Shown piece after piece: positions 12,201-35,649 of a DNA stretch of 64,000 bases. The notes under the pieces were generated by a model, which worked only from the letters and a program-made list of their open reading frames with translations, was not told the origin of the DNA and ran no database searches. The DNA is taken from contig CAWJQC010000004.1 in the NCBI GenBank assembly GCA_963844965.1, positions 96,001 to 160,000 of the forward strand. Direction: 5' to 3'. Made by a program: the position numbers and the translations under genes. Origin of the DNA: an uncultured bacterium (GTDB lineage Bacteria > Patescibacteriota > Minisyncoccia > UBA6257 > 2-01-FULL-56-20). How positions within the stretch are numbered: the first letter of the stretch is position 1; each line of letters opens with the position of its first letter.

Positions 12201-12319
12201 GAACTATGATACTAATATACAAATTGTACTAATGATACGAATGAATACAAATTCGTATCATTTGTATCATTAGCATGATTAGTATATTGGTATCGCAATT
12301 ACTTGTGTTTACGACTTTT

Positions 12320-12852: not shown

Positions 12853-12915
12853 TAGCTTTATTATATAAGAACAGGGAAAGACATGTAAAAGGGGGGTGTG
12901 CATAAGTGCGGAAAC
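12853..12915 (-). promoter_or_regulatory. conserved leader module (copy of 4681-4745) directly 5' of 12320-12852
   Basis: Near-identical 60-bp block with TATATAAT box. Confidence 0.45.
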
Positions 12916-12933
12916 CGCGGCGGGGGCTACTGC

Positions 12934-13797
12934 TTAGGTACAAGAAACGCTTGAAGTCGCAATCATGCCGCTGCCCGTAATATAAAGCCGATAGCAGGAA
13001 GCACCATTCTTCAGGATTATGCCGGACGCGCTATTGCTTATATATATATCTCCCCCGGCGACCTGAAGCGCCTGCGTCGGCTGCGAACCCATGTTCACGC
13101 CGGCGTAGCCGGTAAAATAAACATTATTTGAGCCGGGTAAGCCGAAATTGAGCACGCCGTTGACGTTACTCCAGTATTGCGTGGCAGTTCCAAGCGGCAG
13201 GCCGGTGGTTGACGATGGAAACACACCGGTATCAAAAGTCGCCGCATTCACGCGCGCAATCGCCGTCTGCAGTGCCTCCGAAAATTGCTGTGTCGCGTTC
13301 TGCGTATTGTTGGCCACAACGAATGAAACGCTCACGGAGTCGTGCCCCGGCGCGTTGGAACGCTTTATAAAAGTGAGGGAAGTAACGTTCACCCTCGGAG
13401 TTGTAAGCGGCTGCGGCGTGCCGGTAGCGGTCTGTTGCAAATATACCGTGCCAGGCGTACCGGAAGACAGATAAATGTAGGTCGGGTCCAACGAACTGGC
13501 TGCCATCCGCAACTTTAGGGTGCTCGTAGCGATATCCTGGTTTAACTCAACAAGACTTGAGCGTTCTATGTAATATTGGATCTGCTGCAACAGGAACTGG
13601 CTTTCTTGGTTCACCTCGGCGGCAGCCGACTGGCGGGATTGGATACGTATGACGGCGACCATCATCGTTATAAACGCAACCATGACTATTGCGAAGATCG
13701 CCGAAAAAGCAAGAAGTTCAATGATGGTGAAACCCTTCTTTGAACGGTAGGTGTAGTAAGTGGTAGGTGGTAAGTGGTAGGTGGTAAATTTCTTCAT
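12934..13797 (-). CDS. type IV pilin-like protein (class III signal peptide)
   Basis: ...KKG/FTIIELLAFSAIFAIVMVAFI prepilin cleavage/methylation motif. Unusually long leader MKKFTTYHLPPTTYYTYRS is encoded by degenerate heptamer repeats. Confidence 0.7.
   Translation of the reverse strand: MKKFTTYHLPPTTYYTYRSKKGFTIIELLAFSAIFAIVMVAFITMMVAVIRIQSRQSAAAEVNQESQFLLQQIQYYIERSSLVELNQDIATSTLKLRMAASSLDPTYIYLSSGTPGTVYLQQTATGTPQPLTTPRVNVTSLTFIKRSNAPGHDSVSVSFVVANNTQNATQQFSEALQTAIARVNAATFDTGVFPSSTTGLPLGTATQYWSNVNGVLNFGLPGSNNVYFTGYAGVNMGSQPTQALQVAGGDIYISNSASGIILKNGASCYRLYITGSGMIATSSVSCT
13746..13787. repeat. degenerate GGTAGGT/GGTAAGT heptamer array inside the pilin leader peptide
   Basis: ggtaggtgtagtaagtggtaggtggtaagtggtaggtggtaa. 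Confidence 0.65.
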
Positions 13798-13806
13798 ATT
13801 AACTAA

Positions 13807-14187
13807 TTATAACACTTGGGCGCCTAATGCGCTTATTGCCTTATTTATCATCCACATGATTTCATCTAAATCTTCGGCCAATTTCCTGTATGTTTCGGGG
13901 TTCAAATATTTTAATTCATAGACAATCTCTAACTGAGTTTCCAGCTCTGCGCCGGAACTATATGCGTTTCTCAAAAATTGTAATTTTTCTTTTTTGGAAC
14001 TTCTCCGAAAACCCTCGGCAATATTAGACGGCATAGAAATCGCCGCTCGCCGCATTTGACTTGTTAGACCATATAGTTCCGACGGTGGAAATTTTTCGGT
14101 AACTCCGTATATCAGAACCGCATACGATTTTGTGCGTTTCCAAATGTTCAAATCTCTGTAAGATTTAATGGCTGAATTTTCCGCCAT
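13807..14187 (-). CDS. four-helix-bundle protein (TIGR02436 / Avd-like, 23S rRNA IVS protein family)
   Basis: YRDLNIWKRTKSYAVLIYGVTEKFP...MRRAAISMPSNIAEGF. Confidence 0.7.
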   Translation of the reverse strand: MAENSAIKSYRDLNIWKRTKSYAVLIYGVTEKFPPSELYGLTSQMRRAAISMPSNIAEGFRRSSKKEKLQFLRNAYSSGAELETQLEIVYELKYLNPETYRKLAEDLDEIMWMINKAISALGAQVL

Positions 14188-14205
14188 GTCTAAATTCTAC
14201 TATAT

Positions 14206-14240
14206 CATACTACCTACCACCTACTACATACTACTTACCG
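14206..14240. repeat. degenerate TACTACC heptamer array in 5' leader of 13807-14187
   Basis: ctactatatcatactacctaccacctactacatactacttacc. Confidence 0.6.
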
Positions 14241-14331
14241 TGTCCGACCACCTCTCGCGTTTTCGGCGTTACCCAAAAGCGTCGCTCGCCTACGCTCGCT
14301 CCCTCACAACCTCTCGGTTTTGAGTAATTTC

Positions 14332-16005
14332 CTACACGGGAAAACTCCCGTTTTCCCGACCCCTTTCCCTGATTTTGGGCGTCACCCAAAATCCCAACCG
14401 CCATTTCCCTCCCAACATCAATCTGGTCTGCGCTTCAAGACCTGGCAACGCGCCAAAGATTATGAGCGTCAGCGGTATAAAAATCCACTGAAGAAAATAA
14501 ATGAGGTAGTGCCGCGCGCGGAACCAGCGCGGGCGCGGAGGCAAGAGCAGAATACCTAAAATCGCCGAACTTGCGATGCCTATCATGGAAAGCGAGACGA
14601 TGAAACGCGCGACTTGCGGCAGACTGTAAGAAAGGAGCGTGTAGTTGAAACGCCTGCCGCCGATGAACACCGGCAGCCACCCCAACGCGAAGATCATGAG
14701 GGAATTCGTCGCCCAAGAATGGAAACCTTCAAGGATATTGAAGGACCAATACCATTTTTTTCTTTTCGGAATTTCCGGGTCGCGCCGGAAGCCGTCCAGA
14801 AGATACGGAATATTTTCCGCGCCCCATCCCCAGCGCCGCTGTTGCCTGTAGATATTTTTCATCGTGGCCCAGAAAGTCGGCGCCGCGGGCGCGTCCATGG
14901 AAACCGGGTAAAGAAGGGGCTCAACGCGAAAATCGCCGTGATAGTGGAGATAGCACTGCCAAAAAATCCTTGAGTCCTCGGAGACAACGTCCTTATGCCA
15001 AAAACCGACGTCAATCAGCGTTTTCAGGGGAATTGACTGCGAAGAAAAAGAGGTCAGACGTTCCGGGCGCGACTGCTGCATCATCTGCCAGAAGGTTGAC
15101 GAAAAAGAAACGACGCGCGCCAAAGCCGGCGTCTCGTAAACGTTGTTCATGAAAAGCGGCACCGGCTGGTAAATCGCACGCTCGCGATCCTCCGAAGACA
15201 AAAAAACGTAGGCAAGCCGCCCGAAATATTCCGGGAAAACCTGCGTGTCAATGTCAAAAACCGACACTAAGATATTTTCATATCTTAACGCGGACTTACG
15301 CGGACTTAACGCGGAACTACGCGGAAAAACTTCTGCATTAGTCTGCACTTGCCCGCCTAAATTTCCTTCGGAAACTTTGGCGGGTAAATCTGCGTTAGTC
15401 TGCGCATTGACCAATGGGTCAATTATTAATTCTTTGGCGTGTGCCGCCGCCCACGCCTCATTGGAACCTTTGCCGGGAATTTCACCGGCTAAATTCCGCG
15501 GATGGACAGTGACAAGAAACCTGAAAAATTTATCGGCGAATTCTTTTTTTATTTTTTCGGCGACCGCTCTGGCGTCTTCCCCACCCGCTTCCTCCGTCGC
15601 CAGCACGACCAAAAGCTTATCCAGCGGATAATTCACGCGAACCAAGCTCTCAAAACTTCCGCGAACCACTTCATAGGGCTCTTTGTACATCGGAAGAATA
15701 ATAAGGTGATACACTTCCGACCATGACAATGACTTATGACGATGACCGCTCAAATTATTGTTATCGTTATTGTCATTTGTCATAGTCCGCAATTTTTCCA
15801 GCCAATCCACTCTCAGGTTTTTCCTCATCGCCGAAAAAGTTGAGCGCAAGTGCAGAGAGAGATAAATCGTTTTCAGGAGCCAGTAGATGTCAAAGAGTAT
15901 GATAAAAACCGCGACGGCGGCGGGCAGCTTCCACGACAGAAAGACCATCAAAAATAAAGTGAGCCAGGCAAGACCTCCGGGAAGAATTTCAAAAAAACGG
16001 TGCAT
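14332..16005 (-). CDS. family-2 processive beta-glycosyltransferase (cellulose/chitin synthase-like) with in-frame oligo-repeat insertion
   Basis: N-terminal TM helices; QQRRWGWG (QxxRW) motif; extra segment QTNADLPAKVSEGNLGGQVQTNAEVFPRSSALSPRKSAL. Confidence 0.65.
   Translation of the reverse strand: MHRFFEILPGGLAWLTLFLMVFLSWKLPAAVAVFIILFDIYWLLKTIYLSLHLRSTFSAMRKNLRVDWLEKLRTMTNDNNDNNNLSGHRHKSLSWSEVYHLIILPMYKEPYEVVRGSFESLVRVNYPLDKLLVVLATEEAGGEDARAVAEKIKKEFADKFFRFLVTVHPRNLAGEIPGKGSNEAWAAAHAKELIIDPLVNAQTNADLPAKVSEGNLGGQVQTNAEVFPRSSALSPRKSALRYENILVSVFDIDTQVFPEYFGRLAYVFLSSEDRERAIYQPVPLFMNNVYETPALARVVSFSSTFWQMMQQSRPERLTSFSSQSIPLKTLIDVGFWHKDVVSEDSRIFWQCYLHYHGDFRVEPLLYPVSMDAPAAPTFWATMKNIYRQQRRWGWGAENIPYLLDGFRRDPEIPKRKKWYWSFNILEGFHSWATNSLMIFALGWLPVFIGGRRFNYTLLSYSLPQVARFIVSLSMIGIASSAILGILLLPPRPRWFRARHYLIYFLQWIFIPLTLIIFGALPGLEAQTRLMLGGKWRLGFWVTPKIRERGRENGSFPV
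15287..15412. repeat. GCGGAC/GTCTGC oligo-repeat block in frame within the GT2 gene
   Basis: aacgcggacttacgcggacttaacgcggaactacgcgg...ctgcattagtctgcac...ctgcgttagtctgcgc. Confidence 0.6.
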
Positions 16006-22306: not shown

Positions 22307-25104
22307 ATGCCCGAAGAATTTCCTACGCGCTACGACATAAAGGAAGTTGAAACGAAAATCTACGACCTATGGGAAAAGTCTGGGTTTTTCAATCCCGATG
22401 TTTGCGTTGAAAAAGGCGCGACGAAACCGGACGCCGAACCTTTTTCCATCGTCCTGCCGCCGCCGAACGTAACCGGCACCTTGCACATCGGCCACGCCTT
22501 TGAGGACGCGATCCAAGACACCGTTGTCCGCTACGAGCGCATGCGCGGCAAGCGGACGCTCTGGGTTCCCGGGACCGACCACGCCGCCATCGCCACGCAG
22601 GCGAAAGTGGAGGAACTTCTGCGCAAGGAAGGGAAAACGAAATACGACCTCGGCCGGGAGGAATTCCTGCGGCGCGTGAACGAGTTCGCCAAAAATTCTC
22701 ATGACATCATAATCCGCCAGATAAAACGGCTCGGCGCTTCGCTTGATTGGGGCCGCGAGGCATATACGCTTGATGAAAAACGAAATCTCGCCGTCCGCAC
22801 CGCCTTTAAAAAAATGTACGACCTCGGCCTCATTTACCGCGGCGATCGTATCGTGAACTGGGACCCGAAGCTACAGACCACCGTCTCCGACGACGAGGTG
22901 GAATGGATAGACGAAACGACGCCTTTCTACTATCTGAAATATGGGCCGTTCGTCATCGGCACGGCAAGACCGGAAACGAAGTTTGGCGACAAATACGTCG
23001 TCATGCATCCGGACGACGAACGCTATAAAAAATATAAACACGGCGAAAAGATAGAACTTGAATGGATAAACGGGTCGGTCACGGCAACAATTATCAAGGA
23101 TAAGGTCATTGACGTGAATTTCGGCACGGGCGTGATGACAATCACACCATGGCACGACATGACGGACTTTGACATCGCGGAAAGGCATCGCCTGGATAGG
23201 GAGCAGATAATCGACCTGCGCGGCAAACTGCTGCCCATCGCCGGCGAATTCGCCGGAACGCCTATCGCCAAGGCCCGGCCGCTCATTATTGAAAAACTAA
23301 GAACAAAGGGTCTCGTGGAAAAGATTGACGAACATTACGCCCATCGCGTCGCCACGAACAGCCGCGGCGGCGGCCTCATCGAACCGCAGATCCTCAAACA
23401 ATGGTTCGTCAAGGTAAACTCCAAGTTCCAAATCCCAATTTCCAACCTAAAAGGGATAAAAAGCGGCCAAGAGGTGACGCTCAAGGAACTTATGAAAAAA
23501 GTCGTGGAGTCGGGGCAAATAAAAATCATACCCGGACAGTTTGAAAAAATTTACTATCATTGGATAGACAACCTGCGCGACTGGTGCATCTCGCGCCAGC
23601 TTTGGTTCGGGCACAGAATTCCGGTGTGGTATTGCCTCGCCTGCGGCGAGCCGCAAGTTGAACCGAAAATAAAATCGCGATGGTTCCTGGTGCGGCACGG
23701 AGAAACAGACTGGATCAAAGAGGGGCGGCACATGGGACATAAAGAGGTTCCCATGAATGAAACCGGCAAGCAGCAAGCGATGGTAGCCGGCGAACGGCTC
23801 GCAAACGAAAAAATTGATCTGATAATTTCTTCCACCACCATGCGCTGCAAAGAAACCGCCGAAATTATCGCGAAAAAACTGGGTGTCAAAATTATTTTTG
23901 ACGAACGTCTGCGCGAGCGCGGCAGTGGCGAATGGGAAGGACTGCTGCATGCGGAAATCAGGGAAAAATACAAACCTCTGGAGCAAAAATATGGACCGAG
24001 GAGTGGAACAAGCGCGCGCGCTATGAATTCAAACCGCCGGGAGGAGAAAATTGGCTGGAACTTGAAAAGCGCGTAATTCAATCGTTCAAAGAGCACAAAC
24101 TTCGATACGCCGACAAAAATATCGCGATTGTCACCCACGCCGGTCCGATCAGGATCCTGGAAAAAAATCTTAAAAACAAATCATTTGAAGAAGTGGTGGG
24201 ATTAATACCCGAGAATGCCGAGATTGCTAAGCTTTCAATCGCAACTGCTTCCTGTAAAAAATGTGGCAGTGATACTTACGAGCAGGATCCCGATACTCTG
24301 GATACCTGGTTCTCCTCCGCTATGTGGACGTTCTCAACTCTCGGCTGGCCTGAAAAAACCTCCGACCTCAGAACCTACCATCCAACCTCTTTGATGGCGC
24401 CGGGGTATGAAATCCTTTTCTTCTGGGTGGCGCGGATGATACTCATGAGCGGCTGTCTTTTGGGAGAAATCCCCTTCCGCACGGTTTATCTCCACGGCAT
24501 TGTGCGCGACAAGCAGGGCAAGAAATTCAGCAAATCCAGCGGTCACGCGCTTGACCCCCTGGAACTAGCCGACAAATACGGAGCGGACGCCCTGCGCATG
24601 GCTTTAATTGCCGGAGCGGCGCCGGGAAACGACGTGCAATTTGACGAGAATAGGGTCAAGGGCTACAGGAATTTTTCAACCAAGATATGGAACGTAGCGC
24701 GGTTTGTTTTACTAAACAAACCGCCGCAGACAGACGCTGACAAGACGCGGACAGCCGCGGACATTGCTGGCCGACCAGAGATAAAGGAGTTTGAGGCAAT
24801 TAAATCGGAAATAACGAAACATCTTGATGAATACGAACTGCATCTCGCAAGCGAAAAGATTTACCACTACTTCTGGCACACTTTCGCCGACAAAATAATT
24901 GAACAGGAAAAAGCCAACCTGCGGACAGCCGCCGACAAGACGCAGACAGACGCAGACATTGCGAGACGGGCAGAATCCTATGCCCTACTGGGATACATTC
25001 TCGTCGGTTCGCTTAAACTACTCCACCCTTTCATGCCGTTCGTAACAGAAGAGATTTATCAAAAATTTGAACTAAATAAGCTTCTCTTGACCGAAAAATG
25101 GTAA
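22307..25104 (+). CDS. valS: valyl-tRNA synthetase with inserted histidine-phosphatase domain; apparent frameshift at ~23985-24000 splits it into two ORFs
   Basis: HIGH (TLHIGHAF) and KMSKS-like (KFSKSSGH) motifs, DTWFSSAMWTFSTLGWPE; ORFs 22307-24076 and 23932-25104 overlap out of frame at the A5 run caaaaatatgg. Confidence 0.8.
23672..24250 (+). other. phosphoglycerate-mutase-family histidine phosphatase domain inserted between the CLAC and CKKC zinc-knuckle cysteines of ValRS
   Basis: RWFLVRHGETD (RHG catalytic His), ...RERGSGEWEG..., FKPPGGENW, VTHAGPIR motifs. Confidence 0.6.
24724..24780. repeat. GCAGACAGACGC oligo-repeat in frame in valS (QTDADKTRTAADIAGRP)
   Basis: ccgcagacagacgctgacaagacgcggacagccgcggac. 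Confidence 0.6.
24919..24965. repeat. GCGGACAGCC/GCAGACAGACGCAGAC oligo-repeat in frame in valS (LRTAADKTQTDADIARR)
   Basis: ctgcggacagccgccgacaagacgcagacagacgcagacattgcg. Confidence 0.6.
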
Positions 25105-25619: not shown

Positions 25620-26297
25620 GTGAGTATTCTGACACTCATCCTCGCTCTTCTTCCCGGCTTCGCCTGGCTTCTTTTTTATCTGGAAGAAGACCTTCATCCG
25701 GAGCCGAAGCGGCTCATCGCCTACACATTTGTGATAGGAATGGCCTCGGCTTTTTTCGCGCTCGCCATAGAAATATTTTTCAAGTCTATTTTCAATAACG
25801 CGGGCGTCGCGGAACTTTCCCTGCTCCCGCTGCTCGTCTTCGCCTTTGTGGAAGAGATCATCAAATTCGGGGCAGCTTACCTGGCCGTTCACAAAAATCC
25901 TGCTTTTGACGAACCGGTGGACGCCATGATCTACTGCGTGGTCGCGGCCCTTGGATTCGCCACCGTGGAAAACATCGGTGCCTTGACCGGCGGTTATTCA
26001 GCGCAAACGGCGCTTTTAAGCCAGGTCTTCGCCGCGACCTCAACCCGATTCGTAGGCGCCACGCTTCTACATTCTCTCGCCTCGGCACTGGTCGGCTATT
26101 ATTGGGCGGTCGGCATCAGGGATATGCGGGTCAAAAAATATGTTCTATGGGGATTGCTCATCGCCACCGTCTTGCACGCCATTTTCAACTATCTTATAAT
26201 TATCTATGGAAACGTGGCCTACGTAGCTGTGTTTCTTTTAGTAATAGGTTTCTTTGTTCTCAGCGATTTTGAGAAATTAAAAAGAAGGTCGATATAA
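25620..26297 (+). CDS. PrsW-family intramembrane protease-like protein
   Basis: Multi-TM; FVEEIIKFG (EExxK), F..H and HAIFN motifs. Confidence 0.5.
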   Translation: MSILTLILALLPGFAWLLFYLEEDLHPEPKRLIAYTFVIGMASAFFALAIEIFFKSIFNNAGVAELSLLPLLVFAFVEEIIKFGAAYLAVHKNPAFDEPVDAMIYCVVAALGFATVENIGALTGGYSAQTALLSQVFAATSTRFVGATLLHSLASALVGYYWAVGIRDMRVKKYVLWGLLIATVLHAIFNYLIIIYGNVAYVAVFLLVIGFFVLSDFEKLKRRSI

Positions 26298-26398
26298 TAA
26301 AAAATTAAAAATTTAAAAATCAAAAATAAAAATGACTGAGTTCGCGAAGCGAACATCTGCATTTTACATTTTGATGTTTACATTTTAAATTTCCTATC

Positions 26399-26884
26399 AT
26401 GGACGACGAAAAGTTTTTTGAAGAATTAGCCAGCGGAAAATCCGCGGCCGACGAAGAATACAAGGTTGAACTCGCAAAGGCCGAATCCGTTCCCGCAAAA
26501 AAAATGCAAAAAGAACTAAAAGAGTCAAAGAACGAGGTGCCGGACAGCGAATCCGAGGGACAGCTCACAATTGACGTCTATCAAACACCGTCGGACATAG
26601 TGGTGGAGTCGGCGATAGCCGGAGTCAATCCCGACGACATAGACATAGACGTAACCAACGATTCCATCACCATAAAGGGCTCGCGTCATAGGGATAAAGA
26701 AGTTAAGGATGAAGATTATTTCTACCAAGAATGTTACTGGGGAAGATTTTCCCGCTCTGTGATACTGCCACAGGAGGTTGACCCTGAAAGCGCGGACGTA
26801 AAATTCAAAAACGGGATTCTCACGGTGCGCCTGCCGAAGCTGATCAAACAGAAATCCAAGAAACTAAAGGTCAAGGTGGAATAG
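26399..26884 (+). CDS. Hsp20/alpha-crystallin small heat-shock protein
   Basis: ...SITIKGSRHRDKEVKDEDYFYQECYWGRFSRSVILPQEVD...GILTVRLPK. Confidence 0.75.
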   Translation: MDDEKFFEELASGKSAADEEYKVELAKAESVPAKKMQKELKESKNEVPDSESEGQLTIDVYQTPSDIVVESAIAGVNPDDIDIDVTNDSITIKGSRHRDKEVKDEDYFYQECYWGRFSRSVILPQEVDPESADVKFKNGILTVRLPKLIKQKSKKLKVKVE

Positions 26885-26957
26885 GAACGGCCGCCGGGTA
26901 TTGCAAATTTCGGCGAACGATGCTAATATACGCGTTGTTAGCGGGAGTTTAATGTTA

Positions 26958-26975
26958 CCTGCCGGCAGGCAGATT
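26958..26975. repeat. palindrome TACCTGCCGGCAGGCAG just 5' of rpmB (related copies at 28046-28066 and 47926-47941)
   Basis: Perfect 14-16-bp palindrome recurring three times. Confidence 0.5.
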
Positions 26976-26980
26976 CACAA

Positions 26981-27178
26981 ATGTTTCCCATGAGACAATG
27001 CTCCATTTGCGGCAAGGGTTCGCAAATCGGAGGAAAAAGGATCCTTCTCCGCGGACACTACAATCCGACCAACAAATCCAGAAAATATCCCAATCTTCAG
27101 TGGGCGCGTGTTGAGGGCGTCCGGAAACTTATCTGCACGAATTGCCTGAAGACATTGCATAAAAATATCTCAAAATAA
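26981..27178 (+). CDS. rpmB: 50S ribosomal protein L28
   Basis: CSICGKGSQIGGKRILLRGHYNPTNKSRKYPNLQWARVEG. Confidence 0.7.
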   Translation: MFPMRQCSICGKGSQIGGKRILLRGHYNPTNKSRKYPNLQWARVEGVRKLICTNCLKTLHKNISK

Positions 27179-28014
27179 TGGCCTACCGCCCAGAACTTGT
27201 AAAATTGGTTTCGGAACGGGAAACCGAGGAGAAAGTGAAAAAACTCAGAAAGTTCATAGAAAACGCCGCAGCCGCGGATCGAAAAGAGGGTGTCCCAGTC
27301 GACACGGAGGGGCGGGTTGACATGCGGGCATTTCGCGGCCTGTATGCCGACGTTGAAAAAGACCGGGCAAACGTGCAAATGTGGTTTAAAGAAGAATTCT
27401 CCAAGAAACAGCCCGGTCAATCAGAAGGCCAATTTACGCGCGACGGAGAAAAATTGGAGCTGCTTATCCACGCCATTCTGTATAAAAATCTCCGCTCGGA
27501 ATACATCGTCGCGCGTTCAGCGCTTTTTGACGATATACATGGGGGTATAGATAACGGTCTTTTTGATAAAGAAACCGGCAGTCCGATTTGCGTGTTTGAC
27601 GATGTTGGCGATACTAACGATGAAAGATACAGGGACAAACAAAGTGGCGTTAAGAAACTCAACCTTGAAAAAGGGGGTGCCGACCTGAAATATGGGCTGA
27701 GGATGGAGAACGTGGGTGGTAAGAAAAAAATCGTGCCAAGCGCCGTTAGCAATATTCCTATTTTCTACATTGCCCTCCCCAAGGTTATGATCGATAGGGG
27801 CTTGAAGGAATTTGCTCCGTCACCAACAGAACAATCGGAATTTGAGAAAAAATTATTTGAATATATCTTGAAAGCTATGATGATTCAAATCAAAGATCTT
27901 GAAGTGTATATGCACAGCGGACGTCTCAATCAAAATCTGAGCGACAGGATCGCCGCCTTCAAAAAGACAATCATATCTCTCCAGGCCGCGAAAAGTTATC
28001 AGGCCGCGGCATAA
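27178..28014 (+). CDS. hypothetical protein (278 aa)
   Basis: ORF only; adjacent to tRNA-Pro and the mobile region. Confidence 0.4.
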   Translation: MAYRPELVKLVSERETEEKVKKLRKFIENAAAADRKEGVPVDTEGRVDMRAFRGLYADVEKDRANVQMWFKEEFSKKQPGQSEGQFTRDGEKLELLIHAILYKNLRSEYIVARSALFDDIHGGIDNGLFDKETGSPICVFDDVGDTNDERYRDKQSGVKKLNLEKGGADLKYGLRMENVGGKKKIVPSAVSNIPIFYIALPKVMIDRGLKEFAPSPTEQSEFEKKLFEYILKAMMIQIKDLEVYMHSGRLNQNLSDRIAAFKKTIISLQAAKSYQAAA

Positions 28015-28084
28015 CGGCGGTCAAAAACGGAGTATCGTATAATGGTAGTGCCTGCCGGCAGGCAGGCACATGCATGGCCCAGCA

Positions 28085-29686
28085 CTAAAATTTTCGGGCT
28101 GTAGTATAGCGGCAGTACGCACCCTTGGGGTGGGTGTAGACCGGGTTCGACTCCCGGCAGCCCGACATAACGGAACTTGCATCAACTTTTTCAAAATCAA
28201 CGCGCTCGCTTCGCTCGCTGTCTTTATGCACGAGGGGCAAATGGAGAAGCAAATCCGTAACTACTTTCCATTCGTCTTTCCAATCCCAAAAAATTTCCCT
28301 GTCCCGCAGGCGGCGGTTCGTTCCGATTTTCCCCGCAAAGGATTTTATGGCGTCGAATTCTTCGGACGAAGCCAGTTTTGCCGCGTGAAACGCGGATATA
28401 ATCCATTCCCGCAATGGTTCGATCCAATAGTTTCCCCTCCGCCCGCAATCATCATTCTGCTTGGACAAGGAAACTTTAGTTTTGATAAGCTCGTCCTTTT
28501 TGGCAAGATAGATTTCTTTTTCAATTGAGCCGTCCAAAAAGGCGTTCACGAGCTTGTCTAATTTCTGCTCGGTTTCCTTGAGTTGGGTTTCGAGATTGCG
28601 GGCGGAATTCTCCGAAGATTGGATGCCTTCTTTTTCCCACGCTTCCACTTGAACCAGCATTTTCTCTTTCCAATCTTCGGGGATGGCGACCTCCGAGATT
28701 TTCTCTTTGAGCTGTTGCACGAGTAAATCTTCGCGCAGATAGCTTTGTGAACACGGGCCAAGCCGTTTCGTACAGCGATAATACTTGTAGAGGCCGCCGT
28801 TCCCTTTCGCGTATTGGGCGGTGATGGCCGCGCCGCACTCGCCGCAGGTGAGCAATCCGGTGAACGGGAAATAATGACGCTTCTTGGAGTGGCGCGGCTT
28901 GGCTTTGTTCCTCAAAACCTCCTGCACTTTCTTGAAGGTCGCCTCGGGAACTATCGGCAGGAAATTGCCGACATAGCTCTCGCCGTTGTGTTTTATCACT
29001 CCGAGATAGGCGGAGTTCGTGAGCATCCGTTGGAGCGTGGCCTTCGGCATGGGATTTCCCGTACCGCTCACGATGCCGAAAAACTGGAAGCGGGCGGCGA
29101 GCGTCTTTAGGGTGTGCCTCCCTTCGGCGTATTCCTCAAAAACTTTTCTGATGATTCTCGCCCGCACGGGGTCGGGTTCGATGTTCCGCGTCTTGGGATT
29201 GTTGAGGTAACCGAAGGGGGCTTTGGTCGGCCACTCGCCGCGCCGCAATTTCTGCCGGATGCCGCGCTTCACGTTCTCGGAAAGGTTATCGCTGTAATAC
29301 TTGGACTGGCCGAAGGCGACCTGCAACATGAAAAGTCCCTGCGGGGTCGGCTCAAACCAGAACGTCGGGAACTTCAGCGAGGCAATCTTCTGGGTATCGA
29401 TGAGGTAGATGATTTGGCCGCCGTCTATGGAGTTGCGAGCCAATCGGTCGGGATGCCACGCCAATATGCCGACGGGTTCTTTGCTCTCGTGAATTTTCTT
29501 GATAAGGTCGCCGAACACTTCCCTGCCCGGACTTTTCGCGCTCTTGCTCTCGATGAAGGTCTCGATAATCTTTATATGTTCCCGTTTAGCGAACTCGGCA
29601 AGCTCCGCGAGTTGGGCTTCAATGCTCATCACCTGCCGTTCCTCGTCCTCGGTGGACTTGCGGGCATAGAGGAAATATGGGGTCAT
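28085..29686 (-). CDS. large serine recombinase (integrase/invertase type); 3' end reads through the tRNA-Pro 3' end
   Basis: N-terminal YARKSTEDEERQVMSIEAQ resolvase catalytic domain, recombinase domain, zinc ribbon CGECG...YYRC, coiled coil. Last ~27 codons are the reverse complement of tRNA-Pro. Alternative C-terminus ...SQLLNAVRTYFIENPRD is preserved at 30050-30260. Confidence 0.8.
   Translation of the reverse strand: MTPYFLYARKSTEDEERQVMSIEAQLAELAEFAKREHIKIIETFIESKSAKSPGREVFGDLIKKIHESKEPVGILAWHPDRLARNSIDGGQIIYLIDTQKIASLKFPTFWFEPTPQGLFMLQVAFGQSKYYSDNLSENVKRGIRQKLRRGEWPTKAPFGYLNNPKTRNIEPDPVRARIIRKVFEEYAEGRHTLKTLAARFQFFGIVSGTGNPMPKATLQRMLTNSAYLGVIKHNGESYVGNFLPIVPEATFKKVQEVLRNKAKPRHSKKRHYFPFTGLLTCGECGAAITAQYAKGNGGLYKYYRCTKRLGPCSQSYLREDLLVQQLKEKISEVAIPEDWKEKMLVQVEAWEKEGIQSSENSARNLETQLKETEQKLDKLVNAFLDGSIEKEIYLAKKDELIKTKVSLSKQNDDCGRRGNYWIEPLREWIISAFHAAKLASSEEFDAIKSFAGKIGTNRRLRDREIFWDWKDEWKVVTDLLLHLPLVHKDSERSERVDFEKVDASSVMSGCRESNPVYTHPKGAYCRYTTARKF
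28095..28165 (+). tRNA. tRNA-Pro (anticodon GGG)
   Basis: Acceptor CGGGCUG/CAGCCCG, anticodon loop uuGGGgu, T-loop GGGTTCGACTCCC. Confidence 0.7.
28163..28321. repeat. IR-A left arm (recombinase 3' coding end), inverted copy at 30050-30208
   Basis: ~159 bp identical in inverted orientation; inner boundary at the tRNA-Pro 3' end. Confidence 0.85.
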
Positions 29687-29759
29687 ATCAATATTATAGC
29701 GTCATCACGCCATATAGCGCAATAGTGCCCTGCCTGATACGATATTCATAAGAATACTC

Positions 29760-29963
29760 ATGGATATAGCGGCTAAATTCGGACAGAAGATAAAGAGGTT
29801 GCGATTGAGCGGAAAGATGTCTCAAGGTGGCCTCGCCAAGAAGCTCGGCGTTGGTGCTTCCTATGTCAGCAAGATAGAGCGTGGCATACAAAACGTATCT
29901 CTTAAGGGCGTGGAGAAATTAGCCGATGCGTTGGGCGTACCACCCGACCGCCTCTTGAAATAA
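29760..29963 (+). CDS. XRE-family helix-turn-helix transcriptional regulator
   Basis: KRLRLSGKMSQGGLAKKLGVGASYVSKIERG; divergent from recombinase. Confidence 0.75.
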   Translation: MDIAAKFGQKIKRLRLSGKMSQGGLAKKLGVGASYVSKIERGIQNVSLKGVEKLADALGVPPDRLLK

Positions 29964-30049
29964 CTGGCCTCGTCCGAAAGTTTCGGATAGATAAAATCCG
30001 CAAGGGAAAAATCGGGACAAAGATTCTTTCTTGTCGCAATTCACTTGCG

Positions 30050-30208
30050 ACGAACCGCCGCCTGCGGGACAGGGAAATTTTTTGGGATTGGAAAGACGAA
30101 TGGAAAGTAGTTACGGATTTGCTTCTCCATTTGCCCCTCGTGCATAAAGACAGCGAGCGAAGCGAGCGCGTTGATTTTGAAAAAGTTGATGCAAGTTCCG
30201 TTATGTCG
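30050..30208. repeat. IR-A right arm
   Basis: Reverse complement of 28163-28321. Confidence 0.85.
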
Positions 30209-30580
30209 CAGTTGCTGAACGCTGTACGAACCTATTTTATCGAAAATCCGAGGGATTAGCCACCGGATTTACCCCTTCATTCACCCCTTCATTCGGGTAT
30301 GCTCGGAATGAAGGGGTAGCAAGTCCTGATTGCCCTGAAAACGCTGGGCTTTTTGACTCTCGCCGGACAAAACCAGAAGTCCTACTTCACTCCGGTTTGC
30401 CTAGTCAATCACCCCGTCAATCACGATTGACTACCCTGACGGCCATTCCGCCCTTACGAGACCTCGCTTTTCTCAAAAATCCTGACCCCCGACAATACCC
30501 CTAAACGGGTCTGTGCTCAGCCCCTCAGCCGCTCACTGTTGTTCGGGCTTCGGGGCTTCGCGTATGGCGCGCCCAAATTC
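30203..30580. repeat. IR-B left arm (~380 bp), inverted copy at 32562-32942; abuts IR-A right arm at shared TGTCG
   Basis: Near-perfect reverse-complement identity. Confidence 0.85.
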
Positions 30581-30719
30581 CTCCCCCAACCCCTCCTTTG
30601 GGGCGCGCCGAGGGCGGTTGCGGCAACCCTTGGAACAGGGTATGGTTGAGATATCCACGCATAGGCGATGAAGCTCGCCGCAACCGCCCTTAGGGGCTGA
30701 TAGCTTCTATCTCAAAAAG

Positions 30720-30923
30720 ATGGAAGTTTTTTATTTATTGCTCATCATAGGATTAATCTTCGGCTCGCTCGGTGCGCTCATGGCCTACCTCATCACCTAC
30801 AAGGAATGGATGCATCATTACACATCGCCGAAGATTCCCCGACGTATAGCTCTTGAGACGGCGGTGTTCACACTCGTCTTTTTCATTGTGGTCGCCATGC
30901 TCGTCGGGGCATTCGTCAAATAG
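30720..30923 (+). CDS. small two-TM membrane protein
   Basis: Hydrophobic 67-aa ORF. Confidence 0.35.
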   Translation: MEVFYLLLIIGLIFGSLGALMAYLITYKEWMHHYTSPKIPRRIALETAVFTLVFFIVVAMLVGAFVK

Positions 30924-30959
30924 CGGTTTCTTGCCTCCAGCCCCCCGATACGCTACGAC

Positions 30960-31919
30960 TTACAATATCGCGTTGAATAGATAGCCCGTAAAGACAATCC
31001 CTAACGCTACGATGCCAGCGAAAATGAGTATGAGTTTCGGCTTCATCACCTTTTTCAAAATCATGAACTCCGGCAGGGATAGCGCGGTAACGGACATCAT
31101 AAAAGCAAGTGTGGTGCCCATCGCCACGCCTTTTTCGGTTAATGCGCTCACGAGCGGAATAACGCCTGCGGCGTTGGAATAAAGCGGAATACCGATAAGG
31201 ACGGCGAGCGGCACGGCATACCACGTTCCGCCTCCTGCGTAGCGGGCGATGAGTGAGGCGGGGACGTATCCGTGAATCCACGCACCCACGCCGATGCCGA
31301 CAACGACGTACAACCAGACCCTTTTCAAAATATTCAGAACGTAATCCTTGGCGTAGACGACCCGCTCCTTCCTCGTCATGTGGGGCGAATCAAAGTTCCC
31401 ATTCGCGGCATTTTGATAGATAAACGGCTCGACCAGATTCTCCATTTTCATTTTGCCAATGATTGCTCCCGAAAGCATGGCGATGACAAGACCGCTCGTT
31501 ATATAGATTGCCGCTATCTTCCAACCGAAAAGACCAAGGAGCATCACGAGCGCAACCTCGTTAATCATCGGCGAGGCGACGAGGAAAGAGAAAGTTGTTC
31601 CTAAGGGCACGCCCGCCTGCACGAATCCCAAAAACAACGGGATGGCCGAGCAGGAGCAGAACGGCGTGACGATGCCGAGGAGCGAAGCAAGCACGTTTCC
31701 GACGTACTGTTTTTTATGCGCCAAGACCGCACGCACTTTCTCCGGCGGCAAATAGGAACGGACGATGGACACGGCGAAGATGATGACCGCAAGGAGTAGA
31801 AATATCTTCGTCGTATCAAGGATAAAGAAATCTACCGCGCTTCCAAGGAGTGTGTTCGGCGCGATGCGGAACAGGCCATAAGTCATCCAGTCGGCCAATA
31901 ACTGGAGGGGGTAAAACAT
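30960..31919 (-). CDS. permease (COG0701/DUF318 family, ArsP-like)
   Basis: Multi-TM with paired CxC/CSC motifs (PFCSCSAIP); follows the ArsR and thioredoxin-like genes in an operon-like arrangement. Confidence 0.55.
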   Translation of the reverse strand: MFYPLQLLADWMTYGLFRIAPNTLLGSAVDFFILDTTKIFLLLAVIIFAVSIVRSYLPPEKVRAVLAHKKQYVGNVLASLLGIVTPFCSCSAIPLFLGFVQAGVPLGTTFSFLVASPMINEVALVMLLGLFGWKIAAIYITSGLVIAMLSGAIIGKMKMENLVEPFIYQNAANGNFDSPHMTRKERVVYAKDYVLNILKRVWLYVVVGIGVGAWIHGYVPASLIARYAGGGTWYAVPLAVLIGIPLYSNAAGVIPLVSALTEKGVAMGTTLAFMMSVTALSLPEFMILKKVMKPKLILIFAGIVALGIVFTGYLFNAIL

Positions 31920-31921
31920 CG

Positions 31922-32164
31922 TTATTTTATATTTTGGGAGATTATCTGCCTTATCTTGTCTTTGTCGGGAACCGACCCGACCAATACCGCCTTGCCATCC
32001 ATTGCCAAGACGGGGCTGGACAGCAAACCCATCGCGGCGATTTTCTGAATGTCGTTCACATACTCGACCTCCGTCCCCAAGTTCAATTCCTCGACCGCCT
32101 TTTTAGTCAGCTCAAACAGCTTTTTGCACTTTTGACAGCCCGAACCCAACACTTGAATCTTCAT
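31922..32164 (-). CDS. thioredoxin-fold redox-active disulfide protein 2-like
   Basis: MKIQVLGSGCQKC...; 80 aa. Confidence 0.6.
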   Translation of the reverse strand: MKIQVLGSGCQKCKKLFELTKKAVEELNLGTEVEYVNDIQKIAAMGLLSSPVLAMDGKAVLVGSVPDKDKIRQIISQNIK

Positions 32165-32168
32165 GTTG

Positions 32169-32489
32169 TTATTTGATTTGCTTTATCATCTGTACAAATT
32201 TCCGACCTTTCTTCGTTAATCGGTATTCCACGAACGTGCTTTCTTTGGAGCTTTCGATAATGCCTCCGTCGGCCAAATCCTTGAGATGATGGGAGAGGAG
32301 GGTTTGCGACAATCCCGTATGCGTTTCGAGGTCGCAGACGCAATGAGGGGCTTTATACAAAAGCGAGAGCATGGCGATTCTGCTTGGGGCGGAAACGAGC
32401 TTCATCTGCTCCGCCACGGGGTTGAACTCCGCGAGGTCAACCTTATCGTGAGGCCGTACCTTGCATACACACCGCTTATATATGAACAT
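32169..32489 (-). CDS. arsR: ArsR/SmtB-family metalloregulatory repressor
   Basis: HCVCDL metal-binding motif, LSHHLKDL recognition helix. Confidence 0.7.
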   Translation of the reverse strand: MFIYKRCVCKVRPHDKVDLAEFNPVAEQMKLVSAPSRIAMLSLLYKAPHCVCDLETHTGLSQTLLSHHLKDLADGGIIESSKESTFVEYRLTKKGRKFVQMIKQIK

Positions 32490-32561
32490 GCGTTCATATT
32501 ATAGCGATGCCCAGAGTGCGTCAAGTATGACCACGGCCATGCGGCCGTGAGCTATTTTGGG

Positions 32562-32942
32562 GGAGGAATTTGGGCGCGCCATACGCGAAGCCCCGAAGCC
32601 CGAACAACAGTGAGCGGCTGAGGGGCTGAGCACAGACCCGTTTAGGGGTATTGTCGGGGGTCAGGATTTTTGAGAAAAGCGAGGTCTCGTAAGGGCGGAA
32701 TGGCCGTCAGGGTAGTCAATCGTGATTGACGGGGTGATTGACTAGGCAAACCGGAGTGAAGTAGGACTTCTGGTTTTGTCCGGCGAGAGTCAAAAAGCCC
32801 AGCGTTTTCAGGGCAATCAGGACTTGCTACCCCTTCATTCCGAGCATACCCGAATGAAGGGGTGAATGAAGGGGTAAATCCGGTGGCTAATCCCTCGGAT
32901 TTTCGATAAAATAGGTTCGTACAGCGTTCAGCAACTGCGACA
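32562..32942. repeat. IR-B right arm
   Basis: Reverse complement of 30203-30580. Confidence 0.85.
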
Positions 32943-33164
32943 ATAAATAAAAACGGCGAGGTAAACTCGTCGCCTTTAGGTCCCACTTTAGACGTCCCGG
33001 CCAACTGCCAGGTGGGCTCCTCAGTCGGACTTACCGGGATCAACTGTTTTAAGAGCCGACCCACCGAGTCTGACTATTGCGGATCCCTAAATAGATTGTT
33101 TGATCCGGAATCTACAAGTGGGATTGTTTTTATCATAACATAAAGCGAGGTGAACGCAATGTGA

Positions 33165-33235
33165 ACCCCCACACCCAACGAGGAGTGCTGGTAACAACGC
33201 ACAAGGCATTGCTCCTCGTTAGGTGTGGGGGTGAA
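33165..33235. repeat. palindromic hairpin element (cccccacacccaacgaggag...ctcctcgttaggtgtggggg), same family as 8275-8345
   Basis: Imperfect 20-bp stems. Confidence 0.65.
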
Positions 33236-33454
33236 TTCAACGAAAAAGTGCATAAGTTACAAACCAGTGATTGATAAAGCACAGGTTTTCGGTTATAAAG
33301 CTTAATATATGCCCGGTACTACAACTTTGACGACGCCACTCTGTGCTTATATGTTTTATTCGGCAACAGCGGCCATAATAAACGGCCCGCACAAAGTTTT
33401 GTTACCAGGCAAACGGTCAAGGTCGCAGCATAAATCAAAGTTGTAGCACTGGGT

Positions 33455-34777
33455 ATGACCAAAAAAAGGCGGCGAATCATATTTTATACGCTTCTTCTCC
33501 TTTTTATTCTCGCGGGGGCGAGCGTCATTCTGTACGTAAACGGCTGGAGATTCAATTTCACGACATTCAGATTGGGGAAGGTCGGGGCCATATACGTCCG
33601 AAGCTATCCCCCCCAGGCGAACATGTATCTCGGCGGCCGGTCGGTGGAGAACAAATCCGGATTTTTCCAGAAAGGCACTTTCGTGAGCGACCTTTTTCCT
33701 AAGAACTACAAGCTTAAACTCACCCTGGATGGTTACGAAACTTGGGAAGAAAATGTCCCAGTTTTGCCGTCACTCGTGAGCGAGGTGAAATACGCGGTCC
33801 TTATACCGGAAAATTCCCGAATGGCTGCCACGGGGACTTTCAAAAACTTCTGGCTGCTCGGCAGCGGGGCGCTCACGGAAAACGCCGGAAATAATCTGCT
33901 CTACGACGGCAAAAAAATCGGCGCCGGCAGCGCCGCGGGATGGACGAGCGATTTCAAAAATATTCTCATACACAATGAGGCGCTTGGTAGCTATTCCCTG
34001 TACAACACCGACACCGCAAGCAGCACCGACGTGAATCTCCTCCTGAAAAAATCCAAATTCAACACGAAGCAGGATTTTGAAGTTTTCGCGGATTCGGAGG
34101 ACAAGAGAACACTCATAGTCCGGCAGCAGAATAAATTATACGCGCTGAACATCGGGGAGCCGTCGCTCACGAGTATTTACAAAACAAATCTGGAGCTCGG
34201 AGAAAAAATCGTATCGTCCCAATTCTATTACGCCTGGACGGAATGGAATGTCGCGGAAAATACTTCCACCCTTGTCGTTTACGACAAATTTCTGCAAAGA
34301 ATCAGACCGGAACTGCCAGAACTTCACGGCAAAAACTCGGAACTTGAGTGGATAAACGGAACGAACGAGATCGCCTTGCTTCAGGACGACGGCAGTTTAT
34401 ACACCTACGACATTTCAAGCGATAACATGCAAAAAATCGCCGACGACGTGAAAACATTTGCGTTCACGGACGGTGGCGACGCAGTGGCCGCCCTCGAACA
34501 CCGGTCGCTGGAAATCTTCTTCTTCAACGCGGACAAGGATTACTACCGTTTCAATTTGCCGGATGTCGGCCGCGCCGAAAGTATCATCTGGTACTCCGAC
34601 AAGAACCATCTGTTCGTCGTTTACCCCGGCGAGATAAAATTCCTGGACATTCAAGACGCTTCGCTTGATTACTTCCCCGTTGTCGCCGAGGGCCACCTGC
34701 CGCAATATGACGAGAAAAACAACATTCTCTATCTCGTGGCAAACGATGGCCTGAAAACGCTGGATTTTCCGAAGTGA
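33455..34777 (+). CDS. membrane-anchored protein with PEGA-like beta-sandwich domain
   Basis: N-terminal TM; GAIYVRSYPPQANMYLGG...YKLKLTLDGYETWEENVPV. Confidence 0.4.
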   Translation: MTKKRRRIIFYTLLLLFILAGASVILYVNGWRFNFTTFRLGKVGAIYVRSYPPQANMYLGGRSVENKSGFFQKGTFVSDLFPKNYKLKLTLDGYETWEENVPVLPSLVSEVKYAVLIPENSRMAATGTFKNFWLLGSGALTENAGNNLLYDGKKIGAGSAAGWTSDFKNILIHNEALGSYSLYNTDTASSTDVNLLLKKSKFNTKQDFEVFADSEDKRTLIVRQQNKLYALNIGEPSLTSIYKTNLELGEKIVSSQFYYAWTEWNVAENTSTLVVYDKFLQRIRPELPELHGKNSELEWINGTNEIALLQDDGSLYTYDISSDNMQKIADDVKTFAFTDGGDAVAALEHRSLEIFFFNADKDYYRFNLPDVGRAESIIWYSDKNHLFVVYPGEIKFLDIQDASLDYFPVVAEGHLPQYDEKNNILYLVANDGLKTLDFPK

Positions 34778-34863
34778 GCGGGGTGGAAAGATTCGCTGAG
34801 TCGGTTACGAAAACAGCCCCGATTTTCTCGGAGTTGTTGTACATTTCTGCCCACGGTATCGCT

Positions 34864-35649
34864 TTACCGTTTCTCCCATTTATTCAATTTATTCTGCTCG
34901 TCCTGTTGAAGCGTCTGGAGGGCTTCCTTAACGGTTGTCATGAACTGCGCCGGGAAAATTATCGTGGAATTCTTTTCGGTGGCTATCTCCGCCATGGTCT
35001 GGAGCGTGCGGAGCTGGAGCGCAACGGGATGGGTCGCAATGATATCAGCCGCTTGCCCCAATTTTTCAGCCGCTTGAAATTCACCTTGCGCGGCGACGAT
35101 CTTCGCCCGGCGCTCGCGTTCGGCTTCGGCCTCTTTCGCCATGGCTCTTTGCATGTTGTCGGGTAAAATAACGTCCTTAATTTCTACGGCGGTCACCTGG
35201 ATGCCCCACGGCTCCGTATGGACGTCTATCACATTTTTTATTTTTTCGTTTATATCAACCGTCTGCGACAAAAATTGGTCAAGCATAAATTGGCCCACGA
35301 CGTTCCTCACTGTCGTCTGGCTTATCTGATTCACCGCATCGTGGACGTTCTCTATCGCAACTACGGACTTCTGGGAATCCACCACGTGGTAATATGCCAC
35401 AGCTGCGATGTCTATTGAAACATTATCCTTTGTAATAATCTTCTGCGACGGGATATTCATCGTAACCGTCCGAAGCTCCACACGCACCATCCTCTCAAAA
35501 ATAGGAAGGATGTAAATCAGACCAGGACCACGCGCTCCAACAAGGCGGCCCAAGCGGAACACAACCGCTCGCTGATATTCCTTTATCACCTTAATCCCCG
35601 AGAGGAGCAAGACAACAATGATGATAGCTATGTACATGAGCCACTCCAT
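34864..35649 (-). CDS. SPFH/band-7 (stomatin/prohibitin-like) membrane protein
   Basis: [16 protein letters not shown]...[14 protein letters not shown]...[16 protein letters not shown]. Confidence 0.75.

Follow-up and report, generated by a model that had tools for sequence, protein, structure and literature searches.

A probable mobile element at a tRNA-Pro gene, driven by a large serine recombinase, with an intact inverted attP inside it

Results

Gene content and repeats of the locus

The stretch of DNA analysed here (the window) comprises 64,000 nucleotides from an uncultured member of the Patescibacteriota (assembly GCA_963844965.1, contig CAWJQC010000004.1, positions 96,001 to 160,000), and our subject is a segment next to a tRNA-Pro gene that encodes a large serine recombinase (LSR) and carries within itself an intact, inverted copy of the phage-type attachment site, attP. 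The tRNA-Pro(GGG) gene (28095–28166, + strand), found by ARAGORN and matched by the Rfam tRNA family with 56.7 bits, is intact and represents both the integration target and the left half of the chromosomal attachment site, attB. The recombinase gene (28085–29686, − strand) encodes 533 residues in its integrated form, and its open reading frame (ORF) runs antisense over the whole tRNA gene, which bears out a preliminary description of the locus, made without database searches, in which the frame had been seen to continue across the tRNA 3′ end. Classification with hidden Markov models, suggested in that description, identifies Resolvase (PF00239, E = 8e-21), Recombinase (PF07508) and Zn_ribbon_recom (PF13408) domains, and matches in the PDB comprise SprA, over residues 5–409, and the A118 integrase. 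The residues R9-K10-S11 are invariant in the alignment of the recombinase family, and an AlphaFold model of a native-tail homologue displays long helices at 340–414. Divergent from the recombinase, as first described, lies a gene for an XRE/HTH_3 regulator (29760–29963, + strand; Pfam HTH_3, E = 4e-16), which belongs to the recombinase module and is also found in relatives L001–L005, L166 and L167. These two are the only non-cargo genes; no gene for a directionality factor is evident, and to our knowledge recombination directionality factors share no common signature by which one would be recognized.

Two pairs of long inverted repeats frame the modules of the segment. A repeat search of the window shows IR-A (28163–28321 and 30050–30208) to be 159 nt long and 100% complementary, exactly as had been described, and IR-B (30204–30589 and 32557–32942) to be 386 nt long and likewise 100% identical in inverted orientation; the latter pair had been recognized, together with its position adjoining IR-A, at a size of ~380 bp (30203–30580 and 32562–32942) that is corrected here. 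Perfect repeats of 159 and 386 nt are beyond a chance origin. The middle arms of the two pairs overlap by exactly 5 nt, TGTCG (30204–30208), and the pentamer recurs as CGACA in the last bases of the tRNA-Pro (28163–28167) and at 32938–32942, so that the three junctions do share it, as noted earlier. With perfect arms of this length, the orientation given here for both bracketed segments, the cargo especially, is that of the assembly alone and not of reads.

We name arm a the sequence that adjoins the core from 28168 on, and arm b that which adjoins it from 32937 leftward. The left site then reads tRNA-core-a, the right site b-core-flank and the middle site, on the other strand, b-core-a. The outer junctions are hybrids, namely attL (core 28163–28167, tRNA positions 71–73 plus CA), where the tRNA meets arm a at a tRNA position that is the same family-wide, and attR (core 32938–32942), where arm b meets the chromosomal flank. 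The middle site (core 30204–30208) is an intact attP (a-core-b) that lies inside the element, inverted relative to attL and attR, and the earlier proposal that the middle site is a hybrid of the other two must therefore be reversed. An internal inverted copy of the 540-bp attP region (a-core-b) by itself generates both nested repeat pairs.

The outer arm of IR-A (28163–28321) encodes the last 53 recombinase residues before the core, a variable linker, and its inner end falls at an invariant ACGAACC. The inner arm (30050–30208) is an orphan inverted copy of the recombinase 3′ end with the in-frame translation TNRRL...SSVMS. Were this orphan fragment expressed as a small peptide, its first in-frame start would be a TTG at 30119, where inspection by eye shows no convincing ribosome-binding site. 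No RNA gene was found in arm b, the only Rfam matches in 26000–35000 being the tRNA and a fluoride riboswitch; scans of arm b for promoters and terminators gave no more sites than shuffled sequence; and the inner ends of IR-B show no motif common to the family.

The insertion site is empty in a syntenic relative

Homologues of the 278-aa protein that flanks the element in the window led to a syntenic contig, L169 (GCA_040960625.1), with the gene order valyl-tRNA synthetase, PrsW, HSP20, a 274-aa homologue of the flanking protein (60% identity), tRNA-Pro(GGG) and a 441-aa PEGA-domain protein, which the window matches. The tRNA-Pro(GGG) of L169 (6752–6823) ends ...CTCCGACA and is followed at once by AAATC..., a flank that aligns directly with the window from 32943 onward and includes a block of ~130 nt with >90% identity between the two. 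The right flank of the window (32943–33135, + strand), which provides the right half of attB, consists of a terminator-like hairpin belonging to the tRNA gene followed by this conserved non-coding block. Since the L169 tRNA is joined directly to the homologue of the right flank, the insertion comprises 28168–32942, that is, 4,775 bp with one copy of the core counted. The empty tRNA-Pro site that the preliminary description had hoped to see in a related genome thus exists, whereas the duplication of the tRNA-Pro 3′ half for which it had proposed a test at the far boundary does not: only the 5-nt core recurs (32938–32942). A duplication limited to 5 nt fits a serine recombinase, unlike a tyrosine integrase. 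In the empty state attB would read tRNA-core-flank, joined as ...CCCGACA followed by ATAAATAAAAACGG. An exact-match search of the Joint Genome Institute (JGI) metagenomes for the empty junction of the present genome (AGCCCGACAATAAATAAAAACGGCG) gave 0 matches.

Attachment-site logic

In each locus of the family described below, attL, the internal attP and attR align at a single junction, between tRNA positions 70 and 71. The core shared across the family measures 3–6 nt; in the Pro group its shortest form is TCG and its longest TGGTCG, complementary to CGA(CCA), and in the window CGACA alone is common to attL, attP and attR. Comparison of 32 distinct tRNA-Pro elements shows that GAAC occupies +15 to +18 in the tRNA half, as part of TTGAACC, and +20 to +23 in arm b, as part of CGAACC, a shift of exactly 5 bp. 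Such a 5-bp offset of a motif is the characteristic difference between attB and attP half-sites in LI, A118 and other serine integrases. The GAAC or T-arm-like motif is present on one half of each site only, and by analogy it probably binds the zinc-ribbon domain. The tRNA T-arm would then supply the zinc-ribbon-domain motif of attB, and arm b would be its mimic, shifted by 5 bp to the attP type. From established LSR biology, crossover between attP and attB would occur within the 3–6-nt core, at tRNA positions 71–76. A palindromic crossover dinucleotide (CG in the Pro group) was considered as an explanation for the inverted copy and dropped, the crossover position within the 3–6-nt core being unfixable from the sequence.

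The flank half of attB is not conserved, and heterologous elements have inserted beside resident ones in L088, L121, L033 and L079; in L088 the two recombinases are 45% alike and the older reads into the b arm of the newer. Most of the site specificity therefore appears to lie in the tRNA half. These four loci are tandem arrays in which the same tRNA was targeted repeatedly.

A family of elements with the same layout

Relatives of the recombinase number in the thousands. Scans with the family alignment yielded 553 stretches from the species-representative genomes of GTDB and, from JGI metagenomes, at least 578. Among the GTDB titles Patescibacteria predominate, the others including Omnitrophota, Elusimicrobia, Ignavibacteria, Atribacterota, Nitrospira, Planctomycetia, Bdellovibrionales, Actinomycetota and gammaproteobacterial metagenome-assembled genomes. 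No relative above 30% identity is found among PLSDB plasmids and INPHARED phages, and none in IMG/VR; a phage or plasmid origin was rejected on these grounds.

The architecture of the family was established on the best 160 loci by tblastn, ARAGORN and self-BLAST, and on ~170 related loci overall. IR-A, that is, the recombinase 3′ end repeated in inverted orientation just upstream of the gene, is present in 134 of the ~170, and an antisense tRNA abuts the downstream arm in 85 of these 134. The abutting tRNA is Pro in 42 cases, Glu in 11 and Gln in 7, the rest being Trp, Ser, Ala, Met, Asn, Arg, Phe, Lys and Ile; His and Leu targets also occur, and at least 12 tRNA types are targeted. The recombinase reads antisense into a tRNA in 122 of 168 copies. 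Nearly all integrated copies lie in the tRNA-fused orientation. Where enough upstream DNA is available (32 loci), IR-B adjoins the upstream arm and brackets 0.6–8.9 kb of cargo. The order tRNA, a, recombinase, a′, b′, cargo, b, flank seen in the window recurs in L003, L005, L007, L033, L050, L058, L066, L076, L107, L112, L115, L154 and others, with recombinases that are 46–84% identical and arms of 92–435 nt. The whole layout is a conserved trait of the family, and the earlier view of an integrated element with its att core in the 3′ end of its own recombinase gene is supported by the empty site of L169 and by more than 100 related loci, at many tRNAs, that repeat the arrangement.

Many arms are imperfect (80–99% identity), among them those of L003 (96% and 98%, on a 481-kb contig) and L005 (99%, on a 640-kb contig), and the repeats are therefore real rather than products of assembly collapse. 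Many short-read contigs begin or stop inside the arms, as such repeats predict. At the other extreme, identity is 100% in 62 of 133 IR-A pairs and at least 98% in a further 24; that arms should be identical although the linker is the least conserved part of the protein points to concerted evolution.

Two side observations concern the diversity of these elements. L115 carries, at 12115–14945, a second family member (44% identical) at an adjacent tRNA-Ser, convergent with a tRNA-Arg element and with nested repeats in each, so that several lineages can share one genome at different tRNAs. L002 (5647–7248) and L003 (6649–6817) have extra b-type sites in direct order beyond attR, and in L002 a small cassette carrying a SocA_Panacea (toxin-antitoxin) gene lies between them; such sites resemble what earlier elements might leave behind, or cis-mobilisable cassettes.

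Integration exchanges the recombinase C terminus

The native 3′ end of the recombinase gene is retained in the orphan copy. There the frame reads ...SSVMSQLLNAVRTYFIENPRD and stops at 30257–30259, the codons for the native tail QLLNAVRTYFIENPRD and its stop (30209–30259, + strand) doubling as the attP b half-site. In the a-core-b context the gene of the window would thus specify 524 aa ending in QLLNAVRTYFIENPRD, whereas the last 25 residues of the 533-aa form are antisense-tRNA codons. Since the recombinase gene runs across attP, integration exchanges a conserved, predicted C-terminal helix of 16 residues for antisense-tRNA codons.

The C termini of homologues split accordingly into two classes after a conserved W-S. 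The first continues as '...SQLLNEVRTFFE...' (native, 'SQLLN...'), and the second, 'SG(C/R)x(E/D)(S/L)N...', is the tRNA T-arm translated antisense. The ORF of a tRNA-fused gene ends between 1 and ~40 codons past the core, and the integrated form is therefore effectively a tail-less enzyme. The tail itself, x-[ILF]-L-[NDTK]-x-[AVI]-R-T-[FYH]-F-[EK] followed by a stop, is in frame in ~85 distinct internal copies from all subfamilies, and it is amphipathic. Its R-T codons are always CGAAC(C/T), and this invariance indicates a constraint on the DNA site. The Leu is encoded by CTG, TTG, TTA or CTA, and the preceding hydrophobic position by at least six codons, which argues that the peptide is under selection too. 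An AlphaFold model of a native-tail homologue, used only for linker disorder and tail helicity, displays a disordered linker (451–504) and a terminal helix (508–521, pLDDT ~82).

An invariant motif at the inner end of arm a

The sequence GGAACGAACC, which specifies Gly-Thr-Asn (GGA ACG AAC C) of GTNRRL, the last conserved protein motif of the recombinase, is the same in all 44 of the 44 distinct genes compared, without even a synonymous change. It is located at 28315–28324 and 30047–30056 in the window, and in 35 of the 45 motif-bearing loci the inverted repeat begins 3–4 nt into it. The hexamer CGAACC is common to GGAACGAACC, arm b of attP and the tRNA T-arm. GGAACGAACC may be an accessory binding site or the stop point of gene conversion.

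Loci with a tRNA at the upstream arm

A sense tRNA is joined to the upstream arm in eight loci (L032, L036, L037, L043, L071, L073, L126 and L136), where this arm reads TNRRL, linker, WSG and then antisense tRNA. Three of them, L036, L043 and L136, have tRNAs on both sides of the recombinase and are without cargo arms: inverted Pro(ggg) and Pro(cgg) genes flank the recombinase module of L036 (940–2937), inverted Leu(taa) and Leu(caa) genes that of L136 (9770–11610), and L043 (9636–11565) has Pro(cgg) as its upstream tRNA, while its downstream arm likewise runs into tRNA sequence, where the contig ends. For tRNAs to stand on both sides, the second attP must have recombined with a second tRNA gene, and these loci look like products of cassette exchange or rearrangement between the internal attP and that gene. 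The contigs of L037, L073 and L126 break off precisely where the downstream arm has its inner boundary, which fits a flipped recombinase module without proving it. Taken together, the eight loci suggest that the internal attP can recombine in vivo.

Candidates for a free circular form were also considered and rejected. L167 lacks the core and arm a beyond its far b arm, and L121, L088 and L079 are older members of tandem arrays.

Cargo and neighbouring features

The cargo module of the window contains the ArsR, redox-disulfide and permease genes first noted there, all on the − strand and identified by Pfam as ArsP_1 permease (30960–31919), Thioredoxin_3 protein (31922–32164) and ArsR repressor (32169–32489). 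A promoter scan and direct reading place a promoter-like TTGACG-N17-TATAAT ahead of this operon (30960–32489), overlapping a palindrome at ~32496–32524. On the + strand, a fluoride riboswitch (30655–30716; Rfam RF01734, 47.8 bits against a gathering score of 34, E = 5e-11) lies upstream of an ORF for a predicted membrane protein of 67 aa (30720–30923). This ORF belongs to a conserved, unannotated family (19 clusters, 66–87% identity; no Pfam match) and may be an undescribed fluoride-responsive gene; a homologue in L172 (3746–3949) is without an upstream riboswitch.

Cargo in the family consists mostly of restriction-modification genes, and that of the window is a resistance-type variant. Among 106 cargo ORFs in 30 elements, most of them on the strand opposite the recombinase, the commonest families are DNA methyltransferases (N6_N4_Mtase, 9 ORFs; D12 class, 7), and further cargo includes type III Res, restriction endonucleases (HinfI, ApaLI, ICEA), AAA_15/AAA_21 ATPases, LexA-like proteins and RadC.

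Outside the element, the non-coding block of the right flank (33005–33135; L169 6885–7010), ~130 nt and >90% identical though the neighbouring proteins are only ~60% identical, folds into two hairpin domains, with no covariation from two sequences; it has no Rfam match and may be a small RNA gene. A 68-nt near-perfect palindrome (33165–33232; 21-nt arms, 95% complementary) further into the flank is missing in L169 and may be a miniature mobile insertion. The valyl-tRNA synthetase of the window (22307–25104) is distributed over two overlapping ORFs (22307–24076 and 23932–25104), split at an inserted segment. That of relative L170 is a single 933-aa protein with an inserted His_Phos_1 histidine-phosphatase domain, and that of L169 has 869 aa and no such insert listed. 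The split in the window may reflect a frameshift, a sequencing error or a pseudogene.

Discussion

Proposed role of the internal attP

We consider it likely that 28168–32942 is an integrated 4.8-kb mobile element driven by its LSR, in which the internal attP is live. That this spare attP is a live site is the least certain step of the proposal. If it is, it would make both the IR-A-bounded recombinase module and the IR-B-bounded cargo module invertible, with either the LSR or homologous recombination between the perfect arms as the agent of the flip. A flip of the recombinase module would re-attach the native tail and so produce two enzyme isoforms, which could render integration self-limiting yet reversible.

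Several observations weigh against this proposal. The recombinase modules are strongly biased in orientation, with 122 copies fused to a tRNA and at most eight in the other arrangement, which argues against free flipping. By canonical LSR rules, a reaction between attL and attP would not be expected unless a directionality factor is present. The element of the window is known in one assembled orientation, with neither a variant nor an excised circle, and a terminal overlap was found in 0 of the ~170 related loci (L001–L168), so that a free circular form is not demonstrated. Another explanation for a native-tail gene on a short contig is that it is an older member of a tandem array, as in L088 and L121. 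Since the tail overlaps the attP half-site, part of its conservation belongs to the DNA site and not to the protein, and the model of the native-tail homologue is of low overall confidence (mean pLDDT 66). Finally, the genome with the empty site is a distant relative, its neighbouring protein being 60% identical. The invertible cassette of the preliminary description is plausible, but no orientation variant accompanies it, and the 122 copies that read into a tRNA stand against eight with a tRNA at the upstream arm.

Alternative explanations

In one alternative the element is the same integrated LSR element but its spare attP is static, with no flipping in the chromosome. The 540-bp inverted duplication would then matter only in a free circle resembling the yeast 2-micron plasmid, where it might serve copy control or isomerisation or offer a second chance of integration; or gene conversion would simply maintain it. 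In this view the exchange of the C terminus would be a passive consequence of an attP within the gene. The orientation bias and the LSR rules just cited speak for such a static site, most cargo ORFs have one strand relative to the recombinase, and the contig of L001 has a shape that fits a circle with two inverted attP regions. However, there is no circular contig among the ~170 related loci, and the second attP appears to have recombined in the three loci with two tRNAs and the five others with an upstream tRNA. Moreover, two copies that were equivalent at integration would give half of the integrants the other orientation, and the arms (92–435 nt) are far longer than an att site requires. 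On balance we regard a static site as unlikely, though it deserves to be kept in mind.

The opposite extreme goes beyond a merely live site, and makes the internal attP a working part of the transposition cycle, by which the module would flip indefinitely with directionality control encoded in the layout of the DNA. Because attL and the internal attP have the same a half, their recombination would regenerate both sites, and no directionality factor would be needed. Each flip would toggle the enzyme between a tRNA-fused, locked state and a native-tail, active one, and GGAACGAACC at the inner ends of the a arms could act as an accessory site conferring topological selectivity, as in the res sites of resolvases. 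We advance this cycle only as a tentative and rather improbable extension.

Two further explanations are very improbable. One is an assembly artefact, in which reads from integrated and circular forms, or collapsed repeats, were mis-joined and so mimic an internal attP with nested repeats. The repeats of the window are indeed perfect, its middle site is identical to the junction expected of an excised form, and many related contigs break within repeats. Against this, the same order of arms is found in more than 130 independent assemblies from varied samples and assemblers, contigs of 480 and 640 kb (L003, L005) among them, and imperfect arms of 80–99% identity cannot collapse. The other is a composite of a recombinase-only unit and a non-autonomous cargo unit, arranged head to head, with the middle site as their fusion junction. 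Each module does have its own repeat pair, tandem accretion at one tRNA is known in the family, and extra b-type sites bound further cassettes in L002. But true tandem arrays (L088, L121) join heterologous arms directly, the old a to the new b, with no inverted intact attP; the middle site is identical to both outer arms over 540 bp; and the same design is shared by recombinases that are just 46% identical.

A host phase-variation switch, with a domesticated invertase that flips a promoter or gene cassette beside tRNA-Pro and no mobile element at all, is the least credible explanation, for although the recombinase does lie within its own repeat-flanked segment, as in Hin-type systems, next to an XRE regulator, the site is empty in the syntenic L169, which contradicts it, each relative carries different cargo, that of the window has a promoter-like site of its own, at least 12 tRNA types serve as targets, and the enzyme is an LSR of 524–533 aa rather than an invertase of ~190 aa.

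Relation to known systems

The closest analogue of the probable LSR element described here is found in the ssrA islands of Dehalococcoides (McMurdie et al. 2011, PMC3146451), whose serine integrase DsiB (~540 aa) is encoded next to attL on the reverse strand. The 3′ end of the dsiB gene always overlaps attL, antisense into the tmRNA gene ssrA, and the gene was proposed to be fully functional only on the circle, or beside an island that supplies a 3′ fragment; the islands accumulate in tandem at the site with variable cargo (PMC3146451). The element of the window has in common with them an integrase gene that overlaps attL and runs antisense into the target RNA gene. The ssrA islands differ in their target, in a 20-bp direct repeat where the present family targets tRNAs and shares 3–6 nt, and in a six-gene integration module that includes the small recombinase DsiA, RecF-like, ParB and Mom proteins and a polymerase-domain protein (PMC3146451), none of which is present in the window, where there are only the recombinase and the XRE protein. 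In that paper the term 'inverted repeat' never occurs and we saw no mention of an internal attP, the two features that define the present family (PMC3146451). DsiB is set beside this family here by description only.

The attB sites of the phage Mx8 are in tRNA-Asp genes. Its integrase gene, intP/intX, contains attP inside the coding sequence, and integration is reported to create a new 3′ end that changes the enzyme without inactivating it (Tojo 1996; Magrini 1999; summarised in PMC6070905). Mx8 differs as a 49-kb phage with a tyrosine recombinase, and it is not known to have an inverted spare attP or repeat-bracketed modules.

With the LSRs of phages and prophages (A118/LI, phiC31, Bxb1, SPbeta SprA) the family shares the domain architecture, a short crossover core and a zinc-ribbon-type motif that lies 5 bp further out in attP than in attB, as in the LI model. 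It differs from them in targeting the tRNA 3′ end, which is unusual for LSRs, in having attP within the gene and a second attP in the element, and in the low identity to database recombinases given above. As in Hin, the recombinase gene lies in a segment bracketed by inverted recombination sites; yet Hin and Gin are small serine invertases (~190 aa) with a C-terminal helix-turn-helix, 26-bp sites, an enhancer and a fixed location, whereas the window encodes an LSR of 533 aa, has repeats of 159 and 386 nt and occupies a locus that is empty in L169. The presumed free form would resemble the yeast 2-micron plasmid, a circle whose two unique segments are kept apart by a long perfect inverted repeat, but FLP is a tyrosine recombinase on a replicating plasmid and the present family is known from sequence alone. 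Tyrosine integrases and a displaced tRNA 3′ fragment characterize the tRNA islands of the Islander type, in contrast to the serine recombinase and the 5 nt that recur here. Full-text literature searches returned DsiB and Mx8 as analogues and no description of the nested-repeat architecture, and we could not find described a large family of elements with a second, inverted attachment site in each member.

Implications

Large serine integrases are leading tools for the insertion of large DNA into genomes, and a separate factor normally determines the direction of their reaction. For each member of the present family attP, attL, attR and the predicted attB can all be read from a single locus, since an intact attP is part of the element. 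The targets, tRNA gene 3′ ends, are nearly universal, and the logic of their recognition, with a T-arm mimic and a 5-bp shift, is visible in the sequence. Should the spare attP prove inert, this would still be a well-delimited type of element for which we found no earlier description; if it acts as a switch, it would represent a novel mechanism by which a mobile element governs its integrase. The family seems to be a major carrier of restriction-modification genes, and of other defence genes, among uncultivated bacteria with small genomes.

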